Both the position numbers and the translations under genes were made by a program. A model generated the notes under the pieces. It was not told where the DNA came from, ran no database searches, and worked only from the letters and a program-made list of their open reading frames with translations. Shown in pieces: positions 274 to 11,961 of a stretch of DNA of 41,400 nt. Source of the stretch: Candidatus Eiseniibacteriota bacterium (GTDB taxonomy: Bacteria; Arandabacterota; Arandabacteria; Arandabacterales; Arandabacteraceae). The DNA lies in assembly GCA_043810925.1 (NCBI GenBank), contig JBDRNT010000068.1:1-41400 (forward strand), in the 5' to 3' direction. The first letter of the stretch is position 1. Every line of letters begins with the position of its first letter.

Positions 274-339
274 GTTTCTAACACATTTTGACTAGATGTA
301 GTGGAATGTCCACAGGTACGCGTGCTGGGAGGGATTATC

Positions 340-1467
340 ATGACGAAGAAGGAACTTCTCTCCGCTGCAAAGCGAGATCTCCTCGCCAGGGCCCGAGATT
401 TGCGTATACGTGGCCGCACGAGCATGACCAAAGAGCAGCTGGCCGCCGCGATTGTGAAGGCCAGCAAGCAGGAGGGCGTAGGCGGCTCCTCCGAAACAAT
501 GCCGGGAGGGGGCCCGGGGCCGCAGAAGAGACGAGGGACCCCCATTAGAGAGCGGACTCTTGTCAGGCGAAGCTGGCGGGAGCAGCAGGCGTTGGTACAG
601 CATGCCAAGTATGAAGCGGAGTCGGGTAGAGCCGTAAAGGCGCCGCCCGAGCCCATGCCCGAACCGCATGAGCTGCCGCCGGCGTATGGCGGGGACCGAA
701 TTGTGCTCCTGGTTAGAGATCCGTACTGGCTTCATGTCTACTGGGAGATCTCAAGGGACACGCTGCTCAATGCAAAGAAGATACTTAGGGAAGAGTGGGA
801 GACGGCGCGGTCCGTACTCAGGGTCTATGATGTTACCGGAGTCGATTTCGATGGAAACAACGCCGAATCGTTTTTCGACATAGAGATCGACGGTGGTGCG
901 AATAACTGGTACGTCAATACGGGCGTGCCCAACCGGACCTACTGTATTGAGATAGGACTCCTCTCGAAGTCCGGGAAGTTCGTGATGCTGGCGAGGTCGA
1001 ACAAGGCCACCACCCCGAGAGACGCGCCATCGGATGTGTCCGACGAAGAGTGGATGATCCCCGACTGGCAGTTCGAACAGATCTATGCACTCTCGGGTGG
1101 TTTCAGCGTGGGCACGGGCTCTGCGGAACTCAAGGAGATGATGGAGAAAGCTCTTGGGCAGGCGTTGAGCTCAGGGGCGCCGAGCAGTTTCGCCGTATCG
1201 AGCCCGGGAATGGGGGCCGAGGCCGGAGTCCGGGCGCGCGGCTTCTGGTTCAGGCTGGGTACCGAGCTCATTGTCTACGGCGCCACAGAGCCGGATGCCA
1301 AGGTCACGCTCCAAGGAAGACCGATCAAGCTGAGACCCGACGGGACATTCACAGTTAGAATGGATCTACCCGATGGGGAGCAGGTTATCCCCGCCGTTGC
1401 AGTGTCGGCCGACGGCATCGACACTATCACCATAACGCCGACCGTGAGCAAGAAAACGAAGAAATAG
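340..1467 (+). CDS. DUF4912 domain protein with N-terminal Rho-N-like helix-extension-helix domain and C-terminal Ig-like domain
   Basis: ELPPAYGGDRIVLLVRDPYWLHVYWE, NNWYV, ARSN (DUF4912); N-terminal KRDLLARARDLRIRGRTSMTKEQL; C-terminal ELIVYGATEPDAKVT...PDGTF. ATG at 340 follows GGGAGGG. Confidence 0.85.
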   Translation: MTKKELLSAAKRDLLARARDLRIRGRTSMTKEQLAAAIVKASKQEGVGGSSETMPGGGPGPQKRRGTPIRERTLVRRSWREQQALVQHAKYEAESGRAVKAPPEPMPEPHELPPAYGGDRIVLLVRDPYWLHVYWEISRDTLLNAKKILREEWETARSVLRVYDVTGVDFDGNNAESFFDIEIDGGANNWYVNTGVPNRTYCIEIGLLSKSGKFVMLARSNKATTPRDAPSDVSDEEWMIPDWQFEQIYALSGGFSVGTGSAELKEMMEKALGQALSSGAPSSFAVSSPGMGAEAGVRARGFWFRLGTELIVYGATEPDAKVTLQGRPIKLRPDGTFTVRMDLPDGEQVIPAVAVSADGIDTITITPTVSKKTKK

Positions 1468-1470
1468 GTT

Positions 1471-3123
1471 TTGCCTTTGGGTACGCATAAAGACCAGGAG
1501 CCGCGAGGCCACCTCTCTATAGTTCTTCACGCGCATCTTCCGTTCGTGCGCCATCCGGAGTATGAGGAGTTTCTCGAAGAAGATTGGCTATTTGAAGCAA
1601 TAACAGAGACTTACATTCCTTTGCTCAGGGTCTTTGAGAAGTTGGACGCCGATTCGGTTCCCTTCAAGATAACGGTTTCCTTAAGTCCCACCGTGGTGGC
1701 CATGCTCAACGACTGGATGCTCCAGGAGCGCTACTTAAAACGCCTCAATAAACTGGTGGAACTTGCCTCGAAGGAAGTGGAGCGAACCCGCTGGGACTCT
1801 CGGCTGAACCGGCTGGCGCTTATGTATCACTGGCTTTTCGAGAACACGCGCCGGATCTACGCGGACGAATACTCACGGGACCTCGTGGGGGCTTTCCGCA
1901 GGGCGAGCGAGAGAGGAAACGTCGAGATCATAACCTGTTCGGCCACACATGGCTTCTTGCCGCTCATGTCCGTCAACAAGAACGCCGTCAGGGCCCAGAT
2001 AGAGACGGCCTGCAGATACCATCATAGGAACTTCGGTCAGCGGCCCCGCGGCATGTGGCTTCCTGAGTGTGCATACGAGCCGGGTATCGATGAGATGCTC
2101 AAGGCTTCGGGGATCAGGTTCTTTTTCACGGATACCCACGGGATACTCAATGCCGTACCGAGACCGAGATACGGTGTGTTTGCACCGATCTACTGTCCGT
2201 CCGGTGTGGCGGCCTTCGGACGCGACATGGAATCCTCAAGGCAGGTCTGGAGTGCTCAGGACGGGTACCCGGGTGATTTCACCTACCGGGATTTCTACCG
2301 CGACATAGGCTTTGATCTGGACCTCGATTACGTGCGGCCATATCTGCACGGTAATGTCACGCGAGTGCATACCGGTATCAAGTACTATCGCATAACAGGC
2401 AGGGGCGGCGAGAAGGAGCCCTACGATAGTGATGCGGCACTTGAAAAGGCAGCCGAGCATGCCGGGAACTTCGTCCACAACCGGGAACGCCAGATAGAGT
2501 ATCTCCAGGGTATTCTCGAAAGACCGCCAATGGTGATTGCGCCCTATGATGCAGAGCTCTTCGGTCACTGGTGGTTTGAGGGACCGCAGTGGCTCGAGTT
2601 TGTGATGAGGAAGGCGGCGTTCGACCAGAATACGTTCACGCTCACAACTCCTTCTGAGTACCTTTCACGCTATCCGGAGTGCCAGGTTGCCACACCATCG
2701 CAATCGAGCTGGGGTTGGAAGGGCTACAATGAGGTGTGGCTGGGTGGCTCCAACGACTGGATCTACAGGCATCTTCACTGGGCGGCGGACAGGATGGTGG
2801 AGCTTGCCAATGAGGATGACGGTGGAAACGCTCTCAAGGCAAGGGCCTTGACCCAGGCCGCCCGGGAGTTGTTGCTTGCCCAGGGTAGTGACTGGGCCTT
2901 CATCATGAAGACCGGGACCGCGGTTGACTATGCCGTAAAGCGGACCAAGGAGCACATCCTCAGGTTCCGGAGACTCTACAACGATATCAAGCGGGGTTCT
3001 ATTGACATAGAGTGGTTGAGTAATGTAGAAAATAAGGACAATCTGTTTCCCGAATTGGACTATCGAATCTACTCAGACCGGTTCTCCGTGGCCGGAAATA
3101 CCACAGCTGATACGAGGAGGTAA
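1471..3123 (+). CDS. GH57 family 1,4-alpha-glucan branching enzyme (DUF1957 C-terminal domain)
   Basis: LHAHLPFV, WLFEAITETYIPL, ATHGFLP, GMWLPECAY, PYDAELFGHWWFEG, ARELLLAQGSDWAF. Confidence 0.93.
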   Translation: MPLGTHKDQEPRGHLSIVLHAHLPFVRHPEYEEFLEEDWLFEAITETYIPLLRVFEKLDADSVPFKITVSLSPTVVAMLNDWMLQERYLKRLNKLVELASKEVERTRWDSRLNRLALMYHWLFENTRRIYADEYSRDLVGAFRRASERGNVEIITCSATHGFLPLMSVNKNAVRAQIETACRYHHRNFGQRPRGMWLPECAYEPGIDEMLKASGIRFFFTDTHGILNAVPRPRYGVFAPIYCPSGVAAFGRDMESSRQVWSAQDGYPGDFTYRDFYRDIGFDLDLDYVRPYLHGNVTRVHTGIKYYRITGRGGEKEPYDSDAALEKAAEHAGNFVHNRERQIEYLQGILERPPMVIAPYDAELFGHWWFEGPQWLEFVMRKAAFDQNTFTLTTPSEYLSRYPECQVATPSQSSWGWKGYNEVWLGGSNDWIYRHLHWAADRMVELANEDDGGNALKARALTQAARELLLAQGSDWAFIMKTGTAVDYAVKRTKEHILRFRRLYNDIKRGSIDIEWLSNVENKDNLFPELDYRIYSDRFSVAGNTTADTRR

Positions 3124-9135: not shown

Positions 9136-10227
9136 TTGACAGTGAGAACGATTGCCATTGCGAATCAGAAGGGCGGGTGCGGCAAGACAACGACTGCGAT
9201 AAACCTGTCTGCGTGCCTGTCGCTCAAGGGTAGGACGGTACTCCTGATCGATCTCGATCCGCAGGCGCATGCTACTACCGGTGTCGGTATTGATGTCGAG
9301 GATGTAGAACACAGTGTCTATGATGCACTCTTAGGCGACTGTGGTTTCAGCGACATCACGCGGATGGTCCGGACCGGATTCGATGTCGCGCCGGCAACGG
9401 TGATGCTGAGCGTCTTCGAGCAGAAGCTCGCGGGTGAGCCGGGCAGGGAAAACAAGCTGCGGGAAGTTCTTCTGGGCATGGAGCAGGCTTATGACTACGT
9501 AATAGTGGATTGTCCGCCGAGCATAGGGCTTCTCACCTTCAATGCGCTCAGGGCATGCAACGAGACGATAATCCCGATTGAGAGCAGTTTCTTCTCTTTG
9601 TGGGGAGTAGGCAGGCTCCTCGATATGATCGAGATGATAAGAGAGGAGCTCTCCCACGAGGTCAGGATCAAGGCGCTCTGTACGATCCATGACGGCAGGG
9701 CGCGGTTCTCCGCGGAGATCGTGGAGGATGTGAGGAAGCATTTCAAGGACCGGACCTTCGAGACGGTCGTTCGTGTCAATGTGAAGTTGAGGGAGGCGGC
9801 AAGCTTCGGCCTCCCGATCACTGAATACGACAGGCGTTCGAGGGGATACAGGGAGTACCTCTCGGTTGCGCGGGAGGTCATTGCGGATGAGGATCAGGTC
9901 AGGGTGGAAGAAGCTGTTCAGGTTTCCCTTCCGGCGCCGGAAAAGGAGTCCTATGGACCGAGATCGGTTCCGGGCGGTGTGCTCTTCAAGATCGATGCAC
10001 CGAAAGCCAGCCGAGTCGGCGTTTCCGGGGACTTCAATTCCTGGGAGGATCCGATCCTGCTTAACGATGACGATGAAGACGGTATCTGGATCGCAATAGC
10101 GCGGGTGGATCCCGGGACCTACCAGTACAAGTTCGTTGTGGACGGCGAGTGGATAACGGACCCGTCCAACCCTGTGGGTATCGATGATACTCACGGCGGC
10201 CGTAACTCGATTATGGTGGTGAAATAG
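9136..10227 (+). CDS. ParA/Soj family ATPase fused to C-terminal AMPK-beta-like CBM48 glycogen-binding domain
   Basis: NQKGGCGKTT, IDLDPQAHAT, VDCPPSIG, NVKLREAAS; C-terminal GDFNSW...DGIW...PGTYQYKFVVDGEWITDPSNP...GGRNS. Confidence 0.9.
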   Translation: MTVRTIAIANQKGGCGKTTTAINLSACLSLKGRTVLLIDLDPQAHATTGVGIDVEDVEHSVYDALLGDCGFSDITRMVRTGFDVAPATVMLSVFEQKLAGEPGRENKLREVLLGMEQAYDYVIVDCPPSIGLLTFNALRACNETIIPIESSFFSLWGVGRLLDMIEMIREELSHEVRIKALCTIHDGRARFSAEIVEDVRKHFKDRTFETVVRVNVKLREAASFGLPITEYDRRSRGYREYLSVAREVIADEDQVRVEEAVQVSLPAPEKESYGPRSVPGGVLFKIDAPKASRVGVSGDFNSWEDPILLNDDDEDGIWIAIARVDPGTYQYKFVVDGEWITDPSNPVGIDDTHGGRNSIMVVK

Positions 10228-10228
10228 A

Positions 10229-11185
10229 GTGACCGACGCTAACACGGAGGAAGCGAGGCCCGATCGCAGGGCGAAGACCACCAGACACAGCCGCAAGCTC
10301 GGCCGGGGACTCTCGCAGGTCTCCCACGTGTTCTTGTCGGGTGCCACACGCGAGAAGACTGGGACGACGGCAGGCATCGATGATGCTGCGGACATCAGAT
10401 TCTGGTTGCCGGATGCCAGGCTGATAAGTATCACGTCGGGTGCGGGTGTGTGCGGGAAGAGCATGGTGGCCGCCAATATTGGTTTCGGGCTCTATGAGAG
10501 AGGGCGTAAGGTCGCGTTTGTGGATGCGGATTCCGACAGCCCGGGTATCATGGTGATCACAGGTAGCGTGCTGGCCGAAGCCGGGCACCGGTTGATGAAA
10601 ACCAATGAGGCATTCGGAAACATTGTCATGGTCGGGACTGGTGCCAGGGCGGAAGCTTCGGCCGAAGAAGGATCGGGCTCGACGGCTGCCGCCGGCCATA
10701 TTGAAGAGGCCGCAAGGCAGGCGCGTACCGTGCTGGTAGATACATCGCCGCGGGCGGAATCGAGTTTGACCGTCTGGCAGCTTGCGCGTCTCATACTGGT
10801 CATCACGGAACCGGCCACAGAGAGCATGCAAGCCTCGTACGCGACCATAAAGCGTATCCGCTCAGCTTCGAGGCGCGCAAGGATTGGGGTGATCGTTAAC
10901 AAGGCCAAGGACCACGATGAGGCGGAACAGTGTTTCCGCAAGATATCCAATGTGTCGAGACGTTTCTTGAAGATTAATATCAGAAACTGTGGTTTCATTG
11001 TCCATAGCGATGATGTGAGAGAGGCTTGTGAGCGAGCGGTACCTCTGAGCCGGGCGTTTCCCGGTTCGAGGGCTGCCAGGTGTATGAATTCGATCCTGGC
11101 ACTTATAGTGATGGATGAGTCTGCAATTGCCAGGAGGAGGAGGGAGGTGACAGTAGAAGCGTGCGCATCGAGAGGAGGACAATAG
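10229..11185 (+). CDS. Degenerate MinD/FlhG-like P-loop protein with N-terminal ParB-like LGRGL peptide
   Basis: ITSGAGVCGKS, VAFVDAD, LVDTSP, VITEP..SMQASYATIK, IGVIVNKA, VSRRFL; N-terminal RKLGRGLSQVSHVFLS. Confidence 0.8.
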   Translation: MTDANTEEARPDRRAKTTRHSRKLGRGLSQVSHVFLSGATREKTGTTAGIDDAADIRFWLPDARLISITSGAGVCGKSMVAANIGFGLYERGRKVAFVDADSDSPGIMVITGSVLAEAGHRLMKTNEAFGNIVMVGTGARAEASAEEGSGSTAAAGHIEEAARQARTVLVDTSPRAESSLTVWQLARLILVITEPATESMQASYATIKRIRSASRRARIGVIVNKAKDHDEAEQCFRKISNVSRRFLKINIRNCGFIVHSDDVREACERAVPLSRAFPGSRAARCMNSILALIVMDESAIARRRREVTVEACASRGGQ

Positions 11186-11961
11186 ACAGCGCTAGTGAGC
11201 TTACCACGCTGGTCACGGAGGTCCTCGAGGGAGAAATCAAGGGGTTTCACCTGATTGATCGTGTAGACTTTCCCGGTGACGAGGTTGAAATCGGCCTGCT
11301 TGCAAGTGATGCAGACGGCCGGTTGCTGATCGTCGGTGCAAGGGAACGTTCGGGTGACAGCCTCATCCTCAGCTATGGAAAGCACGTGTCATGGCTCAAG
11401 AGCAGAAAAGATGCATTAGCTAAGAAACATCCCGGGTTGGACTGGACGGGTGAGCCCGGGATTGTGCTTTTATCAGAGAGCTTCAGTCCGCATGTATTGA
11501 CTCTGATCTCAATGCTCGGGACTGAACCGAGGATGTGTTATGGCATCAAATGCCTTGGCATAGGTTCCGAGAAGGGGCTCTATCTGGAGTCGATCCTGCT
11601 TCCCCGGTTCGAACAGGTGAAACAGCCTGTTCCCAGGGAGACCGATCTGCTCTCGAGAGCGGTTTCAAGTGTAGTCGGTGTTGCGGATGACTTGTCCGTC
11701 TCCGCGTCATTCGGCTACGTCAGCGAATCGCTTGATTGGGTGCCGGTTGCCAATGTCAGGAAACGCAGCGGCACCGTCTGGGTGGAATCAGGACCCGGGA
11801 AATGGACGACCAAGAGAGTAGAGGACGAAGAGTCTCTGGTGGATGCGCTTGGCAAGGTCAAGGCGAGCTACGACGAAGTCCTCAGGACGAAGGGCGAAGC
11901 GAAGAACATGAGCGATTCCGAGTTGTCGGATGCCGAGCGCAAGAGTCTGAAGTGGGAATAG
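11161..11961 (+). CDS. Hypothetical protein, NucS/EndoMS-like PD-(D/E)XK fold with apparently lost catalytic residues
   Basis: EIGLLASDADGRLLIVGAR matches the IDxLAxDxxGxLVIxExK pattern except at the catalytic positions; PGIVLLSESFS follows; overlaps the upstream gene by 25 nt. Confidence 0.6.
   Translation: MRIERRTIDSASELTTLVTEVLEGEIKGFHLIDRVDFPGDEVEIGLLASDADGRLLIVGARERSGDSLILSYGKHVSWLKSRKDALAKKHPGLDWTGEPGIVLLSESFSPHVLTLISMLGTEPRMCYGIKCLGIGSEKGLYLESILLPRFEQVKQPVPRETDLLSRAVSSVVGVADDLSVSASFGYVSESLDWVPVANVRKRSGTVWVESGPGKWTTKRVEDEESLVDALGKVKASYDEVLRTKGEAKNMSDSELSDAERKSLKWE

Follow-up and report, generated by a model that had tools for sequence, protein, structure and literature searches.

Closest described systems

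The closest described relative of the locus studied here is the second variant of the ParA-CBM system (branch ConB5), presented in section 29 of the preprint by Li, Burroughs and Aravind (bioRxiv 10.64898/2026.10.19.760177). According to that section, the partners of a ParA-AMPK1_CBM protein are a second, fast-evolving ParA-like protein and an REase, both predicted to be inactive, and carbohydrate-sensing immunity is proposed as the function, with rapid CBM divergence cited. For ParB of M. xanthus, R13 is reported to be needed for stimulation of ParA and not for binding, and I19 is reported to be required, its change impairing binding (PMC12462528). Partners of ParA/MinD ATPases are reported to act via basic, disordered N-termini (PMC10241942), and the deviant Walker A motif with its signature lysine is given as KGGxGK[ST] (PMC9178275, Table 1). 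McdA is described as active without a signature lysine in Walker A, via a relocated lysine.

We analysed a stretch of 41,400 nucleotides from a Candidatus Eiseniibacteriota bacterium (contig JBDRNT010000068.1), referred to as the window. The following features are relevant.

301..3123, + strand: DUF4912 gene and GH57 1,4-alpha-glucan branching enzyme gene, about 6-9 kb upstream; linked context, operon membership only putative
9136..10227, + strand: ParA/Soj-type ATPase with C-terminal CBM48/AMPK-type glucan-binding domain (ParA-CBM48); intact KGGCGKT, D39/D41/D125 and DNA-binding R188/K217; presumed target of the peptide
9967..10218, + strand: CBM48/AMPK1_CBM domain; W303, W318 and W339 in 106/107 homologues, K/R332 in 106, N357 in 97 (D in 9)
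10229..11185, + strand: FlhG/FleN-fold protein of 318 aa with degenerate Walker A (predicted pseudo-ATPase), disordered N-terminus and conserved basic C-terminal helix
10292..10342, + strand: ParB-like N-terminal peptide, residues 22-38, RKLGRGLSQVSHVFLSG; predicted ParA-docking module, portable between carriers
10433..10462, + strand: degenerate deviant Walker A, residues 69-78, TSGAGVCGKS; A in place of the signature Lys (family-wide mostly E/D), with the catalytic GK[ST] retained
11161..11961, + strand: NucS/EndoMS-like PD-(D/E)xK-fold protein (ORF3), predicted dead nuclease without catalytic motif; 25-nt overlap with the FlhG-like gene

Judged by sequence, the locus is a member of the computationally described three-gene system. 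As in the second ConB5 variant, a ParA is fused to a C-terminal AMPK1_CBM, and next to it lie a fast-evolving, predicted inactive second ParA-fold protein and a predicted inactive REase (NucS fold, Z 9.4). The initial annotation had called the architecture of the protein unusual; the three-gene layout of the operon had already been described in the preprint. What the present analysis adds to the main text of the preprint, as searched, is the peptide and its portability, the origin from FlhG and the reading linked to glycogen. GRGL, granule and signature lysine have 0 occurrences in that main text, which is also without the peptide, a peptide-REase fusion or an FlhG origin and adopts the immunity reading. 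In the openly accessible literature, we found no paper joining LGRGL with ParA and ParB.

Likenesses to other systems are partial. The L-G-R-G-L-x-x-hydrophobic spacing matches L11, R13, L15 and L18 of M. xanthus ParB/Spo0J (PMC12462528), and as in ParABS, the target of the peptide would be a Soj-type ParA. In contrast to ParB, the carrier has neither a CTPase nor an HTH domain, Ser takes the place of I19 and is followed by a conserved HxFLS extension, and the neighbouring ParA is without equivalents of D110/E117. The protein encoded at 10229..11185 is closest to FlhG/FleN in fold and tree neighbourhood, but it differs from them in the lost signature lysine, in its N-terminus, in a basic C-terminal helix that replaces the FlhG-type end and in a presence that is independent of FlhA. 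Like McdAB and other ParA/MinD cargo pairs (PMC10241942, PMC8684754), the locus pairs an additional ParA with a partner of its own, whose N-terminal peptide is basic and disordered. Unlike in those pairs, the putative cargo-binding domain sits on the ATPase and not on the partner, the body of the partner is a predicted dead ATPase and/or dead nuclease fold, and the cargo is putative.

The operon and its neighbourhood

The FlhG-like gene sits between the ParA-CBM48 fusion and the NucS-fold gene. Among GTDB loci, ParA-CBM is found upstream in 13/13 with upstream DNA and ORF3 follows in 12/12 with downstream DNA, and the ParA-CBM and FlhG-like genes co-occur in the same 16/18 genomes of the phylum. 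Housekeeping genes make up the remainder of the window (purine synthesis, SecA, topoisomerase I, HslVU, lysine synthesis). In six genomes, DUF4912 is encoded on the same contig, 9-11 kb upstream, and it is present in 14/16 carriers of the system versus 0/2 non-carriers. The DUF4912 protein of the window has a weak Rho_N-type match at its N-terminus.

The ParA-CBM48 protein has domain matches to AAA_31 (residues 4-177) and AMPK1_CBM (residues 291-361), with the Soj-type ParA 8ray as best PDB match (E 5e-59). Among the homologues, the signature K12 and D39/D41/D125 are found in 107/107, R188 in 106 and K/R217 in 106. Going by this alignment, ParA-CBM48 keeps every catalytic and DNA-binding residue checked except N64, which is His in 106/107. 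The CBM keeps the residues aligned with the glucan site of AMPK. A second ParA-CBM48 paralogue is encoded on another contig of this genome (C169:276-1352, + strand). It is 43% identical, has no adjacent peptide gene and is more degenerate, with altered equivalents of K217, W339 and N357; paralogues like it are found in about nine genomes of the phylum. In addition, this genome encodes a canonical parAB elsewhere, on contig C91.

The N-terminal domain of ORF3 aligns with NucS (2vld) at Z 9.4 (rmsd 2.9, 102 aligned residues). ORF3 is without the catalytic PD-(D/E)xK motif. It had no Pfam or NCBIfam match, and Foldseek returned nothing at E<=0.001, the best match being EndoMS at 1.1e-3. Its C-terminal part (11611-11961, + strand; residues about 158-245) is more conserved than the nuclease-fold part, with dN/dS 0.045 among close relatives, and has only weak fold matches, at Z about 5, to ribosome hibernation factors. 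Further ORF3-like NucS-fold domains form part of longer proteins or have no ParA nearby (loci L185, L186 in genome G289, L187, L188 and L193-L195).

The N-terminal peptide and the degenerate P-loop

An LGRGL motif near the N-terminus of the FlhG-like protein and the absence of the signature lysine from its P-loop were the starting observations of the initial annotation, and both are borne out. The gene starts with GTG, 1 nt past the stop codon of the upstream ParA-CBM48 gene, and is preceded by GGTGGTG inside the last codons of that gene. The same 1-nt spacing, with an ATG, GTG or TTG start, was seen in all 11 related loci inspected, out of 13 for which DNA upstream is available, so the start is placed upstream of the motif. 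A start codon downstream of the motif is ruled out by this conserved spacing.

We aligned 57 of the 59 homologues, excluding two short fragments. LG[RK]GL is present in 51/57, and the remaining sequences are four without N-terminus and two ARGL variants. Without exception, the 53 rows that have letters in this region show R26, G27, L28, S32, F35, L36 and S37. The signature lysine column contains E (35), D (9), V (5), A (4), G (3) and S (1), and never K (0/57); none of the 57 has the KGGxGK[ST] form. Neither of the two sequence-level objections foreseen in the initial annotation, a start beyond the motif and a motif that homologues lack, holds. K77, D101 and D171 are present in 57/57, and D99 is replaced by N in 47/57.

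In comparison with the closest relative (L001), the motif is identical in 18/18 residues (pS 0.38, pN 0), with flanks only 61-67% identical. A relaxed motif pattern, applied to all six frames of the genome, matched this ORF alone. Since the motif is identical to that of L001 despite a pS of 0.38, and unique in six frames, it is not a chance similarity. The protein as a whole diverges fast, with a median identity of 46% versus 68% for ParA and 70% for UROD.

The basic C-terminal helix (residues 295-318; 11111-11185, + strand) is lineage-specific and partly overlaps the start of ORF3. M295, A299, R303, R304, E306 and V307 are invariant and C312 is found in 56/57; the helix is a possible candidate for contact with ORF3, DNA or the membrane.

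The peptide occurs on different carriers

A scan of metagenome DNA for the motif only, with a pattern built from the FlhG-like family, gave at least 120 stretches, 119 of those in an open frame. Among these 119 listed matches, 85 carriers were NucS-fold proteins, 25 FlhG-like and 1 a DUF4912 protein, with 8 unclassified (mostly cut off). Flanks were available for 80 of the listed loci; the motif ORF was present in 79, and the upstream DNA reached 500 nt or more in 70. In 69/70 of these listed loci, a ParA or its CBM ends at most 700 nt upstream on the same strand, a proportion that overstates independence because the matches fall into roughly 40 clusters and were found with a pattern from the same family. 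The peptide is a portable module linked to ParA-CBM48.

The ATPase fold is optional, as most of the motif carriers listed are NucS-fold proteins without an FlhG domain. The initial annotation had described a ParA-fold protein as the carrier of the motif; 85/119 of the listed carriers have the NucS fold. The part of the partner that stays constant appears to be the dead NucS-fold domain, and the FlhG fold is an optional scaffold between this domain and the peptide.

The sole exception among the 70 listed loci is a DUF4912 protein adjoining a GH57 branching enzyme (L096:3614-5191, - strand), in which the same peptide is contained in a long lysine-rich N-terminus. This suggests that DUF4912 may also contact ParA.

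Outside the phylum, a ParA of this type was found in 13/283 genomes, with a motif-like gene directly behind it in 10/13 (by eye) and no motif gene behind it in 3/13. In the distant motif-like genes, the LG-G part is variable; the basic residue at the position of ParB R13 and the later S-x-x-F/Y half are kept. The partner lies beside a CBM-less ParA in two of the 13 distant genomes (G024, G193) and in G083.

Predicted docking on the neighbouring ParA

A ParA dimer with ATP, Mg and peptide residues 14-46 was co-folded and compared with controls other than the housekeeping Soj. The score was 0.65 versus 0.00 for the best control, with contacts via peptide residues 22-35, but the runs hardly agreed (in at least 1% of contacts), one run gave 0.32, the partner pLDDT was 54, and complexes of ParB and MinE peptides may be memorised. 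The mark used is reached by 116/157 solved complexes and 2/215 mismatched pairs. Given the synteny (13/13), the 69/70 listed motif loci and this co-fold pass, the FlhG-like protein is very likely a dedicated partner of the adjacent ParA. Of the earlier proposal that it is a ParA-fold adaptor of its neighbour, the pairing thus stands, and the body has to be described as FlhG/FleN-like and not as ParA proper. We are fairly confident that the peptide binds ParA-CBM48.

The best pose contacts ParA residues 48, 152-163, 189-202 and 216-225. This site may resemble the MinE site or the ParF-ParG site, for which papers give partial support. The pose misses the pocket used by M. xanthus ParB (window equivalents 96, 130, 132, 135, 167 and 172, mapped through 8ray), and conservation at the predicted interface is barely higher than the domain average (0.70 versus 0.67). 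In the ParB pocket of the neighbour, the equivalents of L150, G151, L152, L155 and L187 are conserved in kind, V116 is Gln and L192 is mostly Thr. The equivalents of the acidic D110/E117 are M90/K97 and vary across the family, so that two of the four arginine-receiving residues are gone. Those of Y81/E82 are mostly kept (Y in 69/107, D/E in 76/107). On its side, the peptide keeps the equivalents of ParB L11, R13, L15 and L18, and has the invariant Ser32 at the position of I19. Sequence differences of this kind would prevent cross-talk between the pair and the housekeeping ParAB.

We lean slightly towards stimulation of ParA-CBM48 by the peptide rather than inhibition. The alternative is that the peptide binds but inhibits or sequesters ParA-CBM48, for instance by covering its DNA-binding face; the system would then act as a glucan-sensing switch between carbon stores and replication, division or enzyme activity, and not as a granule mover. 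The location of the best pose, beside R188/K217/E220, points in this direction, as does the arginine-receiving acidic patch, of which only half is kept; the basic equivalent of ParB R13 is nevertheless invariant in 53/53 rows and kept even in divergent variants, and most of the Y81/E82 equivalents have been retained. Inhibition would also fit a sugar-binding domain placed on the ATPase, unlike in known positioning systems, and partners that accompany a CBM-less ParA. On balance, we consider it somewhat unlikely.

Possible association with glycogen metabolism

Outside the phylum, glgA was found in 13/13 carriers versus 182/270 other genomes (Fisher p 0.007), and a GH57 branching enzyme in 11/13 versus 109/270 (Fisher p 0.002); counted by family, p is about 0.02 and 0.015, respectively. 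Within the phylum, GH57 is present in 16/16 carriers and 0/2 non-carriers. Against a glucan link, G016 and G017 have glgA without the system, some partners accompany a CBM-less ParA, and, with GH57 and DUF4912 as the only glucan genes queried, one or the other was found inside only 5/79 listed motif loci, namely 4/18 of the FlhG type and the DUF4912 carrier, versus 0/57 of the NucS-fused type.

A stand-alone CBM48 gene of 100-110 aa converges on the operon in one lineage (L049:2561-2860, - strand; L055:331-663, + strand; L090; L104), and is followed at L049 by GH57 and DUF4912. Elsewhere in the genome of the window, a gene cluster (C151:20295-29668) encodes proteins that each have at least one CBM48-like domain.

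Neither a study of ParA-dependent glycogen positioning nor a paper linking DUF4912 to glycogen was found in the openly accessible literature. We favour a glycogen-linked role because the genes are under purifying selection, the glucan-binding residues are fixed and glycogen genes co-occur with the system, and we put the chance that glycogen is the ligand or cargo of ParA-CBM48 at about even.

Li, Burroughs and Aravind have read the same genes as an anti-phage sensor: the CBM would recognise a carbohydrate related to infection, multimerisation of ParA would restrict the infection, and the two inactive proteins, one ParA-like and one nuclease-like, would add to the sensing. The layout is that of section 29 of their preprint, the CBM indeed shows lower conservation than the ParA core (47.7% versus 56.6% mean pairwise identity, 5565 pairs), and the FlhG-like protein diverges fast (median 46% versus 68% for ParA). 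However, dN/dS is 0.096 for the CBM versus 0.084 for UROD, all folded domains fall at 0.07-0.13, like the neighbouring enzymes, and the sugar-site residues are fixed. One ORF3 homologue weakly matches the PADLOC candidate models PDC-S11/S18 (best E 2.6e-6), but PADLOC gave no match for the FlhG-like protein or ORF3 of the window. Occurrence outside the phylum is sparse (13/283), yet gene order is fixed among housekeeping genes in 16/18 genomes, the window holds no defence neighbours, and the fused form had no match in 72,556 plasmids. We regard an immunity function as improbable here.

FlhG ancestry and loss of the signature lysine

The predicted structure of the partner has pLDDT <50 over residues 1-49, followed by one MinD-type domain, and its best fold matches are FlhG (4rz3, E 1.2e-16) and FleN. 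Family matches were of the MinD/ParA type only, ParB/Srx CTPase and parS-binding domains being absent, and a search of the ESM Atlas gave generic MinD/ParA clusters only.

A profile search for distant relatives identified, among 148 newly listed representatives, at least seven proteins in which an LGR-type N-terminus is joined to an intact GKGGTGKS loop (P0184, P0189, P0193, P0223, P0227, P0237 and P0279). From their sequences, this subfamily may represent the ancestral, active form. Several other relatives show further P-loop decay, some lineages lacking even GK[ST]. In a quick tree with long branches, 19/20 ordinary FlhGs and the ParA outgroup split from all peptide carriers with an SH-aLRT of 99, although four peptide-less GGTG-type proteins and one ordinary FlhG also fall on the carrier side; the degenerate forms group at 92. 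The data suggest that acquisition of the peptide preceded decay of the P-loop: lysine loss is likely the later event because certain FlhG-like relatives carry the peptide and still have the lysine. A coupling of motif and lysine loss, which the initial annotation had noted side by side, does not survive these comparisons, and the two as one defining unit are ruled out by the proteins with intact loops.

Other searches for intact-loop carriers gave, from 301 genomes, ordinary FlhG only in the 30 loci examined, and 0 matches at E 1e-85 in 201 genomes of another phylum, in a search run without a positive control. Viral contigs gave two weak matches.

FlhA is absent from 7/16 carrier genomes, including this one (92% complete), and present in 2/2 non-carriers, which rules out an ordinary flagellar FlhG. 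Homologues are named FlhG by JGI, and proteins with this label in these genomes are likely misannotated. Catalytic death of the FlhG-like protein is a prediction; loss of the signature lysine is by itself no proof, and the protein may still bind nucleotide. K208 is invariant in ordinary FlhG too. That the protein is an active ATPase, either as ordinary flagellar FlhG or as a McdA-like variant with a relocated signature residue, is highly improbable: the FlhG label, the invariant K77, D101 and D171, R/K at position 75 in 45/57 and at position 73 in 25/57, the precedent of McdA and the relatives with an intact loop would be compatible with activity, but the window protein itself has G73/C75, the homologue alignment has no conserved Lys at 190-203 (the rough McdA-type position), other lineages have lost even the catalytic GK[ST], ordinary FlhGs split off in the quick tree, and 7/16 carriers dispense with FlhA.

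Proposed mechanism and implications

In the glycogen-linked reading that we prefer, an ATP-bound ParA-CBM48 dimer would bridge the nucleoid and a glycogen-type glucan, the ParB-like peptide of the predicted dead FlhG derivative would dock on this dimer, and docking would likely trigger hydrolysis and release. As a whole, this model of a dead-FlhG partner releasing a ParA-CBM48 that tethers glucan to the nucleoid seems to us evenly poised between right and wrong. With somewhat less confidence, and tentatively, we propose a novel glycogen-granule ParA system with inverted wiring. The ATPase would grip the glucan via CBM48, and a ParB-like tag, passed among an intact FlhG-like ATPase, its dead descendants, a dead NucS-fold protein and a DUF4912 protein, would be the release trigger, possibly acting at a non-ParB site.

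With one ATPase, one 17-residue peptide and one sugar-binding domain, the family is a small test system. The same genes allow two opposite readings, storage-granule handling and phage sensing, and the peptide is a handle with which to separate them. A portable tag, if specific for ParA, would also be useful for engineered positioning.
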